DNA of 9,491 bases, taken from the IMG/VR virus record IMGVR_UViG_2619619129_000006; one strand, 5' to 3'. This document shows positions 1 through 7,009 of this stretch, piece after piece. Every line of letters starts with the position of its first letter. Positions within the stretch are counted from its first letter, which is position 1. A program made the position numbers and the translations under genes. Below the pieces are notes generated by a model. It saw nothing but the letters and a program-made list of their open reading frames with translations. It ran no database searches and was not told where the DNA came from. The stretch comes from a virus. Lineage: Duplodnaviria > Heunggongvirae > Uroviricota > Caudoviricetes.

Positions 1-735
<735 letters not shown>

Positions 736-737
736 CT

Positions 738-1070
738 ATGTCTGTCACAATTCAGGGAAATACCTCAACCGTTATTTCAAACAACTCCGCCCCGGAAGGA
801 ACATCAGAAATAGCCAAAATCACAAGACAAATTCAGGTGCTGACTGAAAAGCTTGGGAAAATCTCATCGGAAGAGGGGATGACGACACAGCAGAAAAAAG
901 AAATGGCTGCATTGGTACAGAAGCAAATTGAAAGCCTCAGGGCTCAACTGGAGCAGTTGTTAAGGCAGCAGGCAGAGAAAAAGAATAAAGACGCGACAGT
1001 TCAGCCTGATAAAAAAGAAGAGAAAAAAGACGATACAAATACCGCTGGCACCATTGATATTTACGTCTAA
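738..1070 (+). CDS. flxA: FlxA (Qin-prophage protein, FliA-regulated in K-12; function unknown), 110 aa
   Basis: ATG 738 to TAA 1068-1070; translation MSVTIQGNTSTVISNNSAPEGTSEIAKITRQIQVLTEK...TAGTIDIYV, 110 aa, matching my memory of FlxA sequence and length. The track ORF 666-1070 is the same frame read through from inside IS5. Confidence 0.85.
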   Translation: MSVTIQGNTSTVISNNSAPEGTSEIAKITRQIQVLTEKLGKISSEEGMTTQQKKEMAALVQKQIESLRAQLEQLLRQQAEKKNKDATVQPDKKEEKKDDTNTAGTIDIYV

Positions 1071-1084
1071 GTGACAGCCGTATT

Positions 1085-1107
1085 GTGGCCCTCATCGGGC
1101 CACTTTT
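1085..1107 (+). terminator. Rho-independent terminator downstream of flxA
   Basis: GTGGCCC (1085-1091) / loop TCATC / GGGCCAC (1097-1103) followed by TTTT (1104-1107), 15 nt after the flxA stop. Confidence 0.6.
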
Positions 1108-1299
1108 CGCCATCAGACTTTTCTTTAAAGACATATTATCTTTGTATCATTTCTGATAGTTAACATTACAAGATATAAGTAATGGACGCACTCCCAATTA
1201 GTCTATTTAAATCGCCACGAGTTTAACTGACAACCCATGATCAATTATGAATTGCAACTATTTCTGTAGTCACTTTTGTGGGGACAGTCCACAAAACTG

Positions 1300-2950
1300 C
1301 CAACTTCCGCTTCTTGCTCTTAGCGGACATTAGCATAGGCTATTTACCATAACGCCTCATTACGCGCACCGCCCAGACTGACTCAGCGCGTTTCTGGCAT
1401 ATCCCCGGTAAAACAAGTAACAAACCACCCGAAAATGAACACCAGAAACGCGACTTAAGAATCTACCCTATGAATGGATATGCACTCAACCGAATCGATC
1501 TTGGTTTCAATCTTTTTTATCGGGATCAGGCTTCTTTTTAGGTAACTTCGGGGGCTTAACTTGCTGATGACTTTGCGTTCGGCGCGTAAGCCAGGGATGG
1601 TCAGCTTTAGGTTTAACATAGTATTTTGAGCGTAAATCAATACGGGCATTATCCACTCGTTCATGGACACTCTTTTCATCATCCAGTGGTATAGGCTCCG
1701 GGCCATCAACATACTTTTCCCAGCCCAGCGCTTTCCCGTCATACAGAACGTTAATTTCACCGTCAAAGTTCTCGCATACAGTAACAACCGAATGCCTAAG
1801 TCGATATCCCCGGCCCTCACTGCGTACCTGAAACGCACTGCTTTTGTACTGGAAAGTGAGATTTTTAGACAGAACGCGCTTCGCCTGTAGGCTGAAGATA
1901 TAACCCAGTTCCTCTTCAGAATGGTGCACATCAAGATGAGCATTATCAGTAGTACGAGGCGACGTAGCGAACCGGTTGTTATAGGCTTCAATAAAGGTCG
2001 GCAACCATGCATTTGCTGTTTCAATATCACTGATATTCTGAAGCCGCATTTCTTTGACCAGCCTGTCCTGTAGTGTCTGATTGGCGCGCTCTACCCGCCC
2101 TTTTGCCTGCGGGCTGTTGGCATGGATTGGCTCGATGCCCAGTGTCTTTATCGCACGAGTGAACTGGGTCAGCTCACCTTCCCGCTCTGGGTTATTTACC
2201 CTGAATATACTGTGTCTATCAGAGTAGAGAGCGAGCGGTACGCCATGATCATTAAGGTAACCCCGGAGGGTTTCCATGTAAGCCCGGGTTGTTTCAGCAG
2301 GCACAAAACGCAACGCCATCAACGCACTGGTGGCATCATCAATGAAAACGATCAGTGTACATCTGGGGCCTCGATTTTCAAACCAGTCATGAGGTGAGCC
2401 ATCAATCTGGATCAGTTCACCGTAAGATGGTCGTCGCATGCGGCGTTGATATATACGGGCAATTTTACGACGGCGTTCACGCCATACCCCCCTCTTCTAT
2501 CATCCACTTTCTGAGAGTTTCAACGGATAAAGATAAACCGTGTATCTCGCGCAATTTTTCGCACGCAAACGTAGGTCCAAAATCAGCGTAACGGCCTTTG
2601 AGGAGTGAAATTACTGTTGCTCTGAATTCAGTAGAAAAGGAATTATTAGGACGCTTTCCACGTCGGTGGGAAACCAGACCAGAAGGCCCTTCATTTCTAT
2701 ACCGTTGCACCAGACGTTTAACCTGCCGAATAGAAATGCCAATGCGTGCCGCAGCTTGTTCCTGAGTAATATGTCGATTAATTGACTCCTGAATAATCTG
2801 AAGTCGGTGGAGTTCCTTATGACTCATCGTAACAGTTTCTTTGGTCATGAAAAATCCCCCAGAGAATTGTCTGGGGACATTTTAGAATGGTTCAAAGGGG
2901 ACATTACAGCTTGGTGTTAACAATAGCCTGCTTCTCCTTGCCTTTCGGCA
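1300..2950 (-). mobile_element. Insertion-sequence-like unit around the frameshifted DDE transposase; ends NOT determined
   Basis: A transposase gene flanked by non-coding DNA between flxA and the prophage early genes. I could not identify convincing terminal inverted repeats or a target-site duplication by eye; the coordinates are only a bracket. Confidence 0.35.
1507..2848 (-). pseudogene. IS481/ISNCY-like DDE transposase (N-terminal HTH + integrase-core domain), split by a frameshift in a G6 homopolymer
   Basis: Track ORFs 2477-2848 (123 aa, HTH-like: ...AARIGISIRQVKRLVQRY...) and 1507-2439 (310 aa, integrase core: IQIDGS...VFIDDAT...YSDRHSIF...SPQAKGRVER) are on the same strand in different frames. 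Hand translation shows the second frame is open back to a TAG at 2497-2499, just upstream of the run CCCCCC at 2487-2492 (+ coords). Removing one G would fuse them into one ~446-aa protein (...WMIEEGVWRERRRKIARIYQRRMRRPSYGELIQIDG...). Family assignment is by motif pattern only. Confidence 0.7.
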
Positions 2951-3182
2951 CGTAAGAGGCTAACCTACATGTGTCTGGCATGAAATTGGCCTCAGATTAA
3001 TGTTAAGCGTCTTGCAGGACGCGTAATGTTAACTGGGGCTTTTCTCTACCTGCCGTTGGTGTTCGTGCCCGAGGCAGATAGCCTCAAGCACCCGCAGTCA
3101 TTCTACTTAACTAAGATTTCCCCGCAAACCGTTTTTGTCCAGCACAGTAAATATCCAACTAAACCAATGGAGTTCGCTGTAT

Positions 3183-3362
3183 TTACCGCCAGTATTCAAT
3201 GCACATGACCGCCATGAACACCCCTAAAAAAAGGGCATTTATATATCCAAATATTAATATCAAAACATCAACTTTTTCCATATACCTTGCTGTGAAGATG
3301 ATGGGCATACATGATGCGAACAACCAGAACGCAACAAACAAAAACTGCAATGCGTTTTTCAT
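3183..3362 (-). CDS. Candidate small membrane protein (59 aa, two predicted hydrophobic helices), function unknown
   Basis: ATG at 3362-3360 preceded by GGAGGA (+ coords 3366-3371 as TCCTCC) with a 3-4 nt spacer; translation MKNALQFLFVAFWLFASCMPIIFTARYMEKVDVLILIFGYINALFLGVFMAVMCIEYWR. The track ORF 3183-3401 is the same frame from an upstream GTG. Lies in AT-rich DNA, where hydrophobic ORFs can arise by chance. Confidence 0.35.
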   Translation of the reverse strand: MKNALQFLFVAFWLFASCMPIIFTARYMEKVDVLILIFGYINALFLGVFMAVMCIEYWR

Positions 3363-3616
3363 TATTCCTCCTACAATCAATGTGCAATTACATTTAAACA
3401 CACCTCAATTTGGCCGGACATATAAATATCTAAACCAGAAAAAATCACTTACATAGCGTTACAAACTCTTTAGTCTAAAGGTTCATCGTAAAACATTCCC
3501 CATACTTATCAGTCCGTTCCGCGCCAGGTAGCTCATTGCCTTATCTGGCAACCTGTAATCAGGTTTCCGCTTTTTCAGTTGGCTGGTCGTTTAACCGACA
3601 TAGTTAACCCATTAAT

Positions 3617-3904
3617 CTAGTTGCCGGATGTTGGTGGATTTTCGCGTTTTAGTTGTTCATAAAAGTGCACAGCTTTAACCAATTCTTCTGATGTAACCGG
3701 GACTGGTGAGGCAGTGAATAAGGCCTGAATTTGATAGTTCGGCCTGTCGTTACAATCCTCTTTTTTCGGTACATATTTCCAGTCACCAGACCACTACTTC
3801 CCCTGAAAGTCCGTAACGCCTTTTTTCACGTAGCGATATCGCCATGTCACTGGTTTTGCTTCCCCCGCCGTTTCATGCCCTTCCTGATAATTAATCTCGC
3901 TCAT
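3617..3904 (-). pseudogene. Short nin-like ORF interrupted by an in-frame TAG (36 codons, TAG, 58 further open codons)
   Basis: ATG 3904-3902 overlaps the upstream frame's TGA (ATGA). MSEINYQEGHETAGEAKPVTWRYRYVKKGVTDFQGK, TAG at 3796-3794, then the same frame continues WSGDWKYVPKKEDCNDRPNYQIQALFTASPVPVTSEELVKAVHFYEQLKRENPPTSGN to TAG 3619-3617. Confidence 0.3.
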
Positions 3905-4092
3905 TCATCGCCCCACTCATCACAATATGCTTCGACCGGAGTTTTTCCCGCTTCATAGTCATCACGCTAGGATTCGACATCAGCAGCACTTCCACCGCGT
4001 AACTCACCATAGTCCATTAATAGTTCATCCCGCTCTTCAAAACTGATGTTATATTTAGCTGAACAAAAATCAGCCACTTTGTTCTTCCTCAT
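3901..4092 (-). pseudogene. Short nin-like ORF interrupted by an in-frame TAG (41 codons, TAG, 21 further open codons)
   Basis: ATG 4092-4090: MRKNKVADFCSAKYNISFEERDELLMDYGELRGGSAADVES, TAG at 3969-3967, then the same frame continues RDDYEAGKTPVEAYCDEWGDE to TGA 3903-3901, which overlaps the next ORF's ATG. Confidence 0.3.
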
Positions 4093-4141
4093 CGTCTTTT
4101 ATTTCGTGGTATGAGTAATTGCAGTAGTTAAAGAAAATTTC

Positions 4142-4252
4142 TTATGCTCCGTCATGAATTTCATCAGGTGTTGCGTCATCGTCCACTTCGAATACATCCT
4201 CAAAATCTCCACCAGCTATTCCCGTTTCAATAATAATTTTGAACTTTCGCAT
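4142..4252 (-). CDS. Hypothetical small acidic protein (36 aa)
   Basis: ATG 4252-4250 to TAA 4144-4142: MRKFKIIIETGIAGGDFEDVFEVDDDATPDEIHDGA. An AGGAGG lies 23 nt upstream, separated from the ATG by a GNRA-loop hairpin. Too short to call confidently. Confidence 0.3.
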   Translation of the reverse strand: MRKFKIIIETGIAGGDFEDVFEVDDDATPDEIHDGA

Positions 4253-4514
4253 TTCACTACCGCCCTTTCGGGCGGCCTCCTGATGTTCTGAGGGTGCAGA
4301 AATCCATCCGGTTAAGGATTAAGTTTTATTTACAGAACTGAATTTAATTATTCAGATATACGTATCTGTAACCTTACGAATCTACTCACTGGATGCCTCT
4401 TTCATAAAAATAATCCAGTGGGTTTTATCGTTTTTTCCCTGTTCGTTGACAGATAACAGGCTTTCTATCTGTCAGTGCCAGAATCTGGCTTACCGGTATT
4501 TGCGTTTCATTCCA

Positions 4515-4871
4515 TTAAAAAATCAGAACGCCGTGCGGCCTCAACACCCGAAAAGCTTCTTTAAATCTCTGTCGCAAATCATCACGCCAGGCATCTTTAT
4601 TCAGCCGTCCATATTTCTTTCCCATCCAGGCGTTATCACCAACACGCTCAAGATGCGGAGGGTCTAATACAACCATCGAAAAAGATGCGTCTGCAAATGA
4701 TAATGCACGAAAATCTGCGATAATGTCAGGGCTGATAATCAAGCGTCTCCCATTGCGTAATGTGTATCCTTCTTTTCTGATATCGCTAAATATCGCCCGT
4801 TCGTCAGACTTATCGAACCAGAACATGCGGCTGCCACAGCACACATCAAGAATGGTTGCCGGTGCACTCAC
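4515..4871 (-). CDS. SAM-dependent methyltransferase-like protein (motif I-like DVCCGSR, motif IV-like DPPH), probably C-terminally truncated
   Basis: Track ORF, 118 aa; GTG start 4871-4869 overlaps the upstream gene's TGA (GTGA). After the TAA at 4517-4515 the same frame stays open for 29 more codons (WNETQIPVSQILALTDRKPVICQRTGKKR), suggesting a nonsense mutation. Gene order O-like / ~140 aa / methyltransferase resembles what I recall of yfdO-yfdN-yfdM in K-12 prophage CPS-53 (unverified). Confidence 0.55.
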   Translation of the reverse strand: MSAPATILDVCCGSRMFWFDKSDERAIFSDIRKEGYTLRNGRRLIISPDIIADFRALSFADASFSMVVLDPPHLERVGDNAWMGKKYGRLNKDAWRDDLRQRFKEAFRVLRPHGVLIF

Positions 4872-5290
4872 TGCGCCACGTCCTGAAAATTACCCTGATA
4901 GAAAGCCAGTATGCGCTGCATAACTTCGCTCTTCCGGCACTCGCGACAGATTATGTTTAGGCGACTGTCGTAGCGACGTATTTCTCCGTCAGGTGATGAC
5001 CAGATAAGGTCCGGATCAACCACAGCAGGTTTCTTCACCTTTGCCCTCGAGAGTTTTTTGCGGGCGTTTTGCCAGTCCTTACGCGCCTGTTCAGAGGGGA
5101 ATAACCCGTAGCCGGAGTTGTATACATCGCCACTGGCTACCAGCTCTCTGGCAAGAACGCTCATCAGATATCTAGTCGCACCTGTTTTAGCTTCCAGTTG
5201 CCGTAACGTCTCACGGCCGCTCTGGTGCACGAGTTCCACCACCTGCCATTTAATTTTTTCCCGCTCTTCTTGTGTAAAAACTTTTGCCAC
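4868..5290 (-). CDS. Prophage hypothetical protein (140 aa), possible winged-helix region
   Basis: Track ORF with GTG start 5290-5288; MAKVFTQEEREKIKWQVVELVHQSGRETLRQLEAKTGATRYLMSVLARELVASG...; stop overlaps the next gene's start. Confidence 0.55.
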   Translation of the reverse strand: MAKVFTQEEREKIKWQVVELVHQSGRETLRQLEAKTGATRYLMSVLARELVASGDVYNSGYGLFPSEQARKDWQNARKKLSRAKVKKPAVVDPDLIWSSPDGEIRRYDSRLNIICRECRKSEVMQRILAFYQGNFQDVAQ

Positions 5291-5330
5291 AAGTCCCCCT
5301 TAAAATTACCTCATGACCTGAAATCAACAC

Positions 5331-6296
5331 TTATCCTCTGAAACCAGGCGGAATTTCTGTATCCGGTTCAGAAATATGATTAACACAACGCTGTACAGGT
5401 GAACGTCCCAGGCGGATGACCAGTTCGTCCCATTTTTCGCGGAGCTTTGACGGGCTCATGATGTTTTTTACCCAGAATGGATCTCGCTGAACCCGACCAA
5501 ACATTTCGCAAATTTGTCTGTGGCTTCTGCCATCCAGCATCCGCATTGTGCGCACGTCATTGGCCCAGGCAGTCCAGTTAGGCTCTTTTGGTCGCATGAT
5601 CTCGCCATCATCACTGGCTGCCTGTTCGTAGAGACCCACGATCCGCCCCCAGATCCACTGCGCACACGCCAAATCCTCCCTGCTACCCCACTGGCGTTTT
5701 TTCGCACTAAACACAACCGCGTCGGAGTTCCGGGTTAAAAAATCCTGTTCAGTCGTCTGCGGGTCCGGTTGCGAAGCTTCCGGACGAAAAGTGTTTTTAT
5801 TCTCTGTAGTAATCTCTGTTGTATTCTCTGTAAGATCATCAGGCCATTTTGACCCGATGACATTGGGTCGTTTTGAATCAATGGAGCGTTTCATTTTGAC
5901 CTCTTCCATCGTGTCATTTTGACCTGATGGAGCGGCGCATTTTGAACCGATGGATTCGCTCAATTTGCCACCATCTAAAAGCTCGCTCCCATAGTTGATC
6001 GTGTAGAAATTGGTCATATCGCGCTTTGATTTATTGAGCTTTTCACAACGCAAAAGCCCCAGCGTTTTCAGACTTGCAAACGCGCGCTTTAACGTTGACT
6101 CTGACCAGAATGGGAACTGTTCCAGCCATTGTTCCGTTGTGTTATAAATCCAGCGAACACCATCACATTCCATGCCGGAGTTGGTATCTCTCAACCAGTA
6201 GTGCAGTTGTTGCAAAACAATGGCTTCGTTTAAGCCAATTTTCATTGCCAGCTGCGTGTTTATAACCAGTGGGCGTTCAGCAAAAAGAAGGCTCAT
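5331..6296 (-). CDS. Phage replication initiator, O-like (N-terminal HTH replisome-organiser domain, repeat-containing linker, conserved phage C-terminal domain)
   Basis: Track ORF 5331-6350 begins at a TTG; the first ATG is at 6296-6294 (MSLLFAERPLVINTQLAMKIGLNEAIVLQQLHYWL...), giving 321 aa. The linker-coding DNA carries the iteron array listed below, as in lambda O. Confidence 0.75.
   Translation of the reverse strand: MSLLFAERPLVINTQLAMKIGLNEAIVLQQLHYWLRDTNSGMECDGVRWIYNTTEQWLEQFPFWSESTLKRAFASLKTLGLLRCEKLNKSKRDMTNFYTINYGSELLDGGKLSESIGSKCAAPSGQNDTMEEVKMKRSIDSKRPNVIGSKWPDDLTENTTEITTENKNTFRPEASQPDPQTTEQDFLTRNSDAVVFSAKKRQWGSREDLACAQWIWGRIVGLYEQAASDDGEIMRPKEPNWTAWANDVRTMRMLDGRSHRQICEMFGRVQRDPFWVKNIMSPSKLREKWDELVIRLGRSPVQRCVNHISEPDTEIPPGFRG
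5790..5976. repeat. Putative phage replication origin: six ~23-bp phased iterons plus three tandem 12-13 bp repeats, inside the O-like gene
   Basis: Direct repeats of consensus CATTTTGACCNGATGG starting at 5845, 5869, 5892, 5915, 5938, 5961; adjacent tandem units containing TCTCTGT at 5801-5807, 5814-5820, 5826-5832. Confidence 0.65.
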
Positions 6297-6798
6297 AATT
6301 CCATCCAGCTTTTTGTTGGTATTGCTGTCGATACGCAAGCTTGAAAGCAATTGCTTTTTCTATAAGTTCGTCAGTTTCACGATCCACTACGGCAGGATCA
6401 GCAAAAAGCAGTCCGGACTCCACCACATCGCCATATTCTTTGTTTAACCCGGCGATCATGCACGTGATGCTTTTTCCGTCAGTAATTTCACGATACAACC
6501 TGAAATCACTAATCCGGATAGCCTCCATAATCGCAGGCACTAGCGCCGTGAACTTTTCACGCTTATCCCTGGTGTCGATAGCCTTCCAGCGTTCGAATAT
6601 CTTCACTCGATTAACACCAAGCGCTCGCTGATCAACCGCGCCACCTTCATCTGTGACACGCTGAACATCGATGTTCGGGCGCTCTTTCAAAGCCCAGAAT
6701 GCTTCAGTGATTAATATCGTCGCCTGCTCCTGTGTCATTCCTGGTCGACATATCCAGGCATCCAGAGCCTCACGAGCCTGTTCAGGAGTGATTTTCAT
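6277..6798 (-). CDS. Hypothetical protein at the cII position between the cro-like gene and the O-like gene (173 aa)
   Basis: Track ORF; ATG 6798-6796 preceded by a G-rich SD-like stretch; overlaps dicC by 17 nt and the O-like start by 20 nt. MKITPEQAREALDAWICRPGMTQEQATILITEAFWALKERPNIDVQRV... I suspect it is the intact form of the K-12 ydfX pseudogene but cannot confirm. Confidence 0.55.
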   Translation of the reverse strand: MKITPEQAREALDAWICRPGMTQEQATILITEAFWALKERPNIDVQRVTDEGGAVDQRALGVNRVKIFERWKAIDTRDKREKFTALVPAIMEAIRISDFRLYREITDGKSITCMIAGLNKEYGDVVESGLLFADPAVVDRETDELIEKAIAFKLAYRQQYQQKAGWNYEPSFC

Positions 6799-7009
6799 TG
6801 TTCAACCGCCCCGCCCGCTTCGTCTTACGATATTCATCATAAACTTTGGGATCATACTGAAGCTCCCCGCCAGATGCCTCCTGTAGACGCATCGCGCGAC
6901 CTTCAGGAACCAGTATCCCCCAAGCAGCAACACTTGCCAGCCTCACTCCTGCGGCATTGGCAAGCTTTGTTTTGCTGCCAAAAAAAGTAATTGCGTCAAC
7001 TTTAAGCAT
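6782..7009 (-). CDS. dicC: DicC, Cro-like repressor
   Basis: ATG at 7009-7007 (track ORF starts 3 nt upstream at a TTG); MLKVDAITFFGSKTKLANAAGVRLASVAAWGILVPEGRAMRLQEASGGELQYDPKVYDEYRKTKRAGRLNNENHS; ~76 aa, divergent from dicA, as in the K-12 Qin prophage. Confidence 0.85.
   Translation of the reverse strand: MLKVDAITFFGSKTKLANAAGVRLASVAAWGILVPEGRAMRLQEASGGELQYDPKVYDEYRKTKRAGRLNNENHS

Follow-up and report, generated by a model that had tools for sequence, protein, structure and literature searches.

Organization of the locus

The stretch of DNA analysed here (the window) is an IMG/VR record of 9.5 kb (9,491 nt), which is a Qin-type defective Escherichia coli prophage with one copy of a 1.62-kb insertion sequence (IS). 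Positions 736 to 6960 share 99.9% identity with a Qin-type defective prophage region in E. coli strain 13P484A. The gene order on the element strand is a cI-like repressor, Cro, YdaT, an O-like gene, DUF977, a set of decayed small genes, a decayed hok-type locus, the IS, flxA and, at the contig end, IS5. The last of these is represented by an IS5-family transposase (DUF772 plus DDE_Tnp_1; 2-703, minus strand), which runs off the window start beside flxA, and the contig end is probably explained by this repeat. The features of the IS that are relevant to its transposase gene were as follows.

1302-2922, minus strand: whole ISEsa1-type IS, with ends determined by comparison of independent insertion contexts
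2477-2848, minus strand: ORF A, 123 aa, with its ATG at 2848; transposase residues 1-120, containing two helix-turn-helix (HTH) domains
2496 to a stop at 1507, minus strand: ORF B frame; DDE/RNaseH catalytic core and C-terminal domains, transposase residues 121-446
2487-2492, minus strand: run of six C residues on the plus strand (six G residues, G6, on the coding strand), containing the additional G responsible for the frameshift
1507-1656, minus strand: 'protein YdfW' of RefSeq; the final 49 transposase codons, beginning at an internal GTG

ORF A, named 'helix-turn-helix domain-containing protein' in RefSeq (WP_001406656.1), ends in ...KWMIEEGGMA*, encoded by ...LRKWMIEEGGMA-TGA at 2477; the GMA tail and the TGA stop codon are out of frame with the transposase. 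The ORF B frame, which is +1 relative to ORF A, is translated as ...KRGVWRERRRKIARIYQRR... (also given as ...GVWRERRRKIARIYQRR...). Its first ATG is at 2439 (Met137), and no Shine-Dalgarno sequence was evident before this codon. When compared with the 368-position NCBIfam model NF033594, 'ISNCY family transposase', ORF A matched positions 1-104 (113 bits) and ORF B positions 110-365 (330.8 bits; cut-off, 250). As these are neighbouring parts of the model, the two ORFs are adjacent halves of one protein. Pfam matches were to HTH_28, HTH_32, HTH_29 and HTH_23 in ORF A and, weakly, to rve_3 in ORF B (24.3 bits, slightly below the cut-off of 26.5).

Loss of one base fuses ORF A and ORF B only within 2496-2477, a 20-nt overlap that includes the G run. 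This overlap and the NF033594 matches bear out a reading made from the sequence only, in which an HTH ORF and a DDE-core ORF were said to be joined by a one-base change at CCCCCC (2487-2492). Removal of one G from G6 generates an unbroken 446-aa ORF. The further claim that five Gs instead of six would give one continuous frame was confirmed by natural alleles, as G5 at the same position is associated with an uninterrupted 446-aa ORF in MSI001, GPEC1446 and plasmid pSA20064858.1. In-frame alleles at this site have either GGGGT, the majority state, or GGGGG (G5). The C6 run is the sole G/C run of at least six in the whole window. Approximately two to three such runs are expected per 9.5 kb from composition; hence, the run by itself is unremarkable and it is its position that counts.

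Truncation of the IS, as implied by the label 'missing C-terminus' of PGAP, was considered and rejected, since the ORF continues through 'ydfW' to the stop codon of the intact plasmid copies. The label 'incomplete; missing C-terminus' is also attached to the ORF-intact copies of S51 and GPEC1446 and looks like an artefact of the separate annotation of ydfW. For annotation purposes, WP_001406656.1 and the neighbouring 'partial' transposase are one broken gene.

Distribution of repeat-tract alleles

A 61-nt query centred on the G run was utilized to search 5,426 complete E. coli genomes, with the alleles being separated by identity bands. The 61-nt stretch was present in 769 E. coli records, which were distributed among three alleles.

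G6 (the window state): exact match to the query; 50 E. coli records
G5, GAGGGGGTATGG: 98.4% identity over a 60-nt span; 5 records (MSI001, GPEC1446, DEC9B chromosome and plasmid, and p7_33_46A-2)
G4T, GAGGGGTTATGG: 96.7% identity; 714 E. coli records, in frame

No G7 allele (62-nt span) was detected among the 5,426 complete E. coli genomes. The G4T chromosomal ORF encodes 446 aa, as in S51, or 437 aa, as in W5-6, which has lost 27 nt in frame, and the 446-aa in-frame ORF is also found in GPEC1446 and in plasmids, two annotated plasmid examples being 446-aa coding sequences. All of the plasmid copies (200/200) were in frame, one of these, on the Salmonella plasmid pSA20064858.1, being a G5 allele. 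The G6 allele was thus carried by 6.5% of the records with this stretch and 0.9% of E. coli genomes. Copies with six Gs and two ORFs do therefore exist outside the window, but they constitute one orthologous allele of one lineage and not the normal state that the sequence-only reading had asked about; judged from these counts, G6 is a minority, derived allele. An interpretation of G6 as the majority state, based on 99.5% matches, was rejected when the 61-nt search found that most E. coli copies have GGGGT and are in frame.

The G6 allele was found in strains from pigs, cattle, humans, water and sediment, and 17 genomes matched 1,561 nt of the window at 100% identity. Outside the complete genomes, the exact 123-aa ORF A was present on at least 1,000 contigs and the 446-aa G5 protein on 672. 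Exact sequence words were found in 20 assembled DNA runs from many studies, and four RNA-seq assemblies carried G6 without a gap, these being assembled contigs from which rare variants are dropped. All of the runs with this locus were in assembled form, and three raw-read runs from 2026 contained no reads from it.

These data bear on whether the window contains a homopolymer sequencing or assembly error, the true state being five Gs and an intact gene. In favour of an error, homopolymer lengths are prone to miscalling, the window is a short viral contig of metagenome style and two of the G5 chromosomal records could be long-read assemblies. Set against this, G6 occurs with two linked single-nucleotide polymorphisms (SNPs; described below) in 50 independent complete RefSeq genomes from many laboratories and platforms, and is free of gaps both in assembled Illumina-era runs from 2012 to 2015 and in the RNA-seq contigs. 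With ORF A on so many contigs as well, an error, which was one of the options offered by the sequence-only reading, is vanishingly improbable.

Linkage of the G6 allele and order of mutations

Two SNPs near the start of ORF A accompanied the G6 tract in 50 of 50 genomes.

2844, minus strand: C, changing codon 2 from Ile to Thr
2837, minus strand: A, a synonymous change in codon 4

A 66-nt query spanning these SNPs returned, at 100% identity, the same 50 accessions as the G6 query. This complete linkage of G6 and the two SNPs indicates one mutational event that was inherited by one haplotype. All of the G5 records inspected (MSI001, GPEC1446, DEC9B chromosome and plasmid, p7_33_46A-2 and pSA20064858.1) had the ancestral states at codons 2 and 4.

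In a haplotype table for the 1.62-kb IS, a single substitution, T>G at 2487, separated the G5 alleles of GPEC1446 and pSA20064858.1 from the G4T Qin copies, and nothing but the additional G and the two SNPs separated them from the window. The E. coli Qin copies and those on Klebsiella plasmids differed at only a few non-coding sites. The most parsimonious history of these haplotypes is a change of G4T to G5 by substitution followed by a change of G5 to G6 by gain of one base. In the first step, T>G (TTA to GTA, Leu121Val) extended the GGGG run to GGGGG; in the second, one G was added, probably by replication slippage, producing G6 and a +1 shift of frame after codon 120. The alternative order, with the gain of G preceding T>G, is formally allowed but requires a GGGGGTT intermediate, which was not observed, and the observed G5 alleles keep the ancestral SNP states. 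The alleles form a clean natural series, in which the homopolymer is lengthened from 4 to 5 by substitution and to 6 by a slip, with all three stages surviving in sequenced strains. This series is an example of a point mutation that can make a gene prone to loss by frameshift.

The co-occurrence of G5 and G6 in nature at the same locus is also what would be seen with a phase-variable contingency tract, in which high-frequency switching between five and six Gs turned the transposase on and off, and the sequence-only reading had suggested phase variability as an option. The 55 records with either tract, however, exhibited no mixing: G5 was found with the ancestral and G6 with the derived SNPs at codons 2 and 4. 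The G6 haplotype had G6 in every one of its 50 records, with neither G5 nor G7, and was constant across strains of diverse sources. Six Gs is shorter than the tracts known to switch at useful rates. Phase variation is, on this evidence, unsupported and highly unlikely.

Conservation of the junction in relatives

A third possibility is that the six Gs are a programmed recoding site, with a +1 ribosomal frameshift on GGG-G or transcriptional slippage on G6 allowing synthesis of both an OrfA-like regulator and a full-length transposase. An HTH-only product is plausible as a regulator. A tRNA-Gly can re-pair after a +1 slip, with GGG GGU then giving the exact protein of the G5 allele (...EEGVWRE..., Val121). 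The G run and the preceding GA resemble a Shine-Dalgarno sequence, and an in-frame UGA is located 9 nt downstream, an arrangement loosely reminiscent of the prfB +1 site. The prfB (RF2) frameshift likewise involves a G-rich Shine-Dalgarno-like stretch, an in-frame UGA within a few codons and a product that continues in the +1 frame; the window differs in having no slippery CUU-type codon at the stop, in its spacing and in that nothing is conserved. GGU, the codon that follows the putative slip site, is a common one, and GCG, which precedes the stop, is not a slippery codon. There is also a superficial likeness to the programmed -1 frameshift of IS1 and IS3 (OrfA/OrfAB), in which an ORF for the DNA-binding part is followed by one for the catalytic part, with an overlap of a few codons at a homopolymer. 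In those elements, however, the shift is -1, on A-rich heptamers with downstream structure, at a site conserved throughout the family, whereas the window would require a +1 shift, on a G run confined to one haplotype.

A protein search with the natural G5 fusion detected thousands of single-ORF relatives of 420 to 447 aa ('ISNCY family transposase'), and an uninterrupted protein with 99.8 to 100% identity was encoded in approximately 200 plasmid records (Klebsiella, Enterobacter and further genera). Among 12 proteins with 59 to 100% identity, there was no alignment break at the junction, and W115, M116 and W122 were invariant. The junction DNA was in frame at 40 loci (Enterobacteriaceae plus Hahella), with homologous junction codons of GGGGTTA, GGGCATA, GGACTG, GGGCTG, GGACTC and GGGTTG, and no conserved slippery G run was found across these loci. 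Hence, 93% of the E. coli copies (714 records), all 200 plasmid copies and every relative examined, including distant ones, have a single in-frame ORF lacking the G run, while the G6 allele is a recent derivative on a single haplotype. The RNA contigs had G6 only, although assembled contigs do not reveal minor species. Two descriptions of the IS1202 family list a single transposase per IS and do not mention frameshifting (Harmer and Hall 2023, PMC10132070; Siguier et al., preprint, 10.1101/2022.12.17.520857). Recoding, which the sequence-only reading had itself placed lower for this family, is unsupported by these comparisons and is very unlikely.

The G6 state is best explained as a stably inherited frameshift pseudogene of the IS transposase in one E. 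coli lineage, and not as an error, a recoding site or a phase switch; we assign this interpretation a probability of about 0.93. The census and the linkage support the remaining option of the sequence-only reading, a real slipped-strand inactivation of a single-ORF transposase, with slippage as the presumed mechanism and inactivity as the presumed outcome.

Consequences for the transposase and decay of the locus

The HTH and DDE domains, which are present in one polypeptide in the G4T and G5 alleles, are divided between two reading frames in the window copy. Translation of the G6 allele would stop nine bases on and yield a 123-aa DNA-binding fragment without the catalytic domain, while the DDE part would have neither a start signal before Met137 nor a DNA-binding domain. 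We infer from this layout that the G6 copy is unable to make its own transposase and that transposition activity has been lost. The ends of the IS appear intact, and mobilization in trans by a plasmid-borne copy is conceivable in principle. Even intact copies, however, occupy only one locus per E. coli genome (a median of one place), and the element may, therefore, be nearly immobile in E. coli whatever the effect of the frameshift.

Plasmid-borne ISEsa1-type elements with 99.8% identity are common on Klebsiella and Enterobacter plasmids. It is conceivable, though unlikely, that the split allele is still alive, either because the 123-aa HTH product represses incoming ISEsa1-type elements or because rare slippage restores the Val121 transposase; one possibility for the latter would be a +1 slip on GGG-GGU or slippage of RNA polymerase on G6. 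If so, the IS of the G6 lineage would be attenuated and self-limiting rather than a pseudogene.

Other alleles at this locus show further decay. The PE164 copy contains an IS3-family insertion, with its transposase coding sequence labelled 'frameshifted' by PGAP, and the GF43 copy contains an insertion of IS903B. The W5-6 allele lacks 27 nt (corresponding to window positions 2766-2792) and, with them, nine residues (SINRHITQE) from the first HTH region; this is another independent lesion of the same gene. Matches to the query were found in 3,759 genomes, but with a query coverage of at least 80% in only 788. In K-12-like strains, which carry the Qin/Kim cryptic prophage, the ydfW remnant of 49 codons is all that is left of the transposase gene. 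The window and the K-12 Qin/Kim prophage are alike in the locus involved (decayed hok-type locus to flxA) and in piecemeal decay of a prophage transposase, including large deletions; they differ in that decay is minimal in the window, with one base added and both IS ends intact. The G6 frameshift is, in this context, a classic example of gene decay within a cryptic prophage, at least one copy already being flagged as 'frameshifted' in RefSeq.

Family and ends of the element

The G5 fusion is 99.8 to 100% identical to proteins named 'IS1202-like element ISEsa1 family transposase'. The RefSeq name is 'ISEsa1 family' only. By name, by family model and by the published description of ISEsa1, the element is a member of the ISEsa1 subgroup (formerly ISNCY) of the IS1202 family. 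The ISNCY part of the label 'IS481/ISNCY-like' given in the sequence-only reading was, therefore, retained under its present name, while the IS481 part was dropped.

Shared with ISEsa1 and the IS1202 family is a transposase that matches NF033594 and in which two HTH domains at the N terminus are combined with a DDE core (PMC10132070; 10.1101/2022.12.17.520857). ISEsa1 is described as 1,609 bp in length, with terminal inverted repeats matching at 15/22 positions, one 439-aa transposase and no target duplication (PMC10132070, Table 7). The element examined here is similar in length (∼1.62 kb), has a left end starting with TGT and shows no visible target duplication. Intact relatives in the family have a single ORF of ∼440 to 447 aa, whereas in the window copy the ORF is split by the additional G; this copy is an IS1202-family member by descent whose gene is broken.

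The IS is 1621 bp in the window, as compared to 1620 bp for the in-frame alleles. The left end, fixed from more than eight independent flanks, is at 2922 and begins TGTTAACACCAAGCTGTAATGTCCCC; TGTTAAC.... The right terminus is ...AAGAAGCGGAA(GTT), at approximately 1305-1302; relatives terminate in ...GCGGACA or ...GCGGACG and the window copy in ...GCGGAAGTT. Elements of the family typically have outer ends of the form 5'-TGT ... ACA-3' and imperfect terminal inverted repeats; no clear terminal inverted repeats were detected here by a repeat finder or by local alignment of both IS ends. No target-site duplication was present in the flanks (...GGCTAT-IS-GGCAGTTTTG), in agreement with ISEsa1 (PMC10132070).

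The motif (A)ATGTCCCC occurs twice on the element strand inside the left end (2872-2879 and 2897-2903). A related sequence, TAATGTCCGC, is present near the right end, the inverse, GCGGA(C)A, occurs at the right terminus, and a further copy is found in the Qin flank at 1279-1286, just beyond the right boundary. These sequences could be subterminal transposase-binding sites of the kind described for the IS1202 family.

A cer-like site in the right end

One additional feature was detected within the right end of the IS (∼1302-1470).

1342-1370, minus strand: cer/dif-like XerC/D site, GGTGCGCGTAA-TGAGGCG-TTATGGTAAAT

The site is 35 to 65 nt from the right terminus. Against the dif and cer consensus sequences, 10 of the 11 positions of its XerC arm agree with dif, and its XerD arm is the same as that of cer. 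It was found at the same position in approximately 30 enterobacterial copies, down to ∼80% transposase identity; the arm was not found at three loci of 78 to 88% identity, and the site was absent from the Hahella, Massilia and chlamydial relatives. Wherever the site was detected the XerD arm was invariant, with variation in the surroundings and in the spacer (7 or 8 nt). A 4.5-kb ColRNAI plasmid has an intergenic site that is homologous to the Xer core plus ∼110 nt upstream, with the similarity ending right after the XerD arm. The explanation that the site is a target located outside the IS was rejected, as the ∼40 nt beyond it, up to the IS terminus, are conserved across at least eight flanks.

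A different subgroup of the IS1202 family inserts next to Xer sites, while ISEsa1 is listed with no target and no target duplication; an internal cer-like site in the ISEsa1 subgroup is not mentioned in either description of the family (PMC10132070; 10.1101/2022.12.17.520857). The internal site might be related to the absence of target duplications in the subgroup. The presence of a conserved cer-like site in the right end, together with the hok-type flanks described below, is of more interest than the G6 frameshift.

Flanking sequences

[quoted passage not shown]

2924-2962, minus strand: terminator-like hairpin of the decayed hok-type locus

Several independent copies on other replicons have a left end that abuts different, diverged terminators of the hok/pnd type, which suggests that the IS has a target preference for sites just downstream of hok-family loci. 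RNA-seq contigs with a depth of ∼1,400, derived from a paralogous locus, map to 2923-2974.

On IncI plasmids of Salmonella and E. coli, the G5 form of the IS is flanked on the right by Qin DNA (ydfW-flxA-ydfV-relBE) and on the left by the trbA region. A block of the prophage with the relBE toxin-antitoxin pair has been transferred to conjugative plasmids, the probable route being recombination via the IS.
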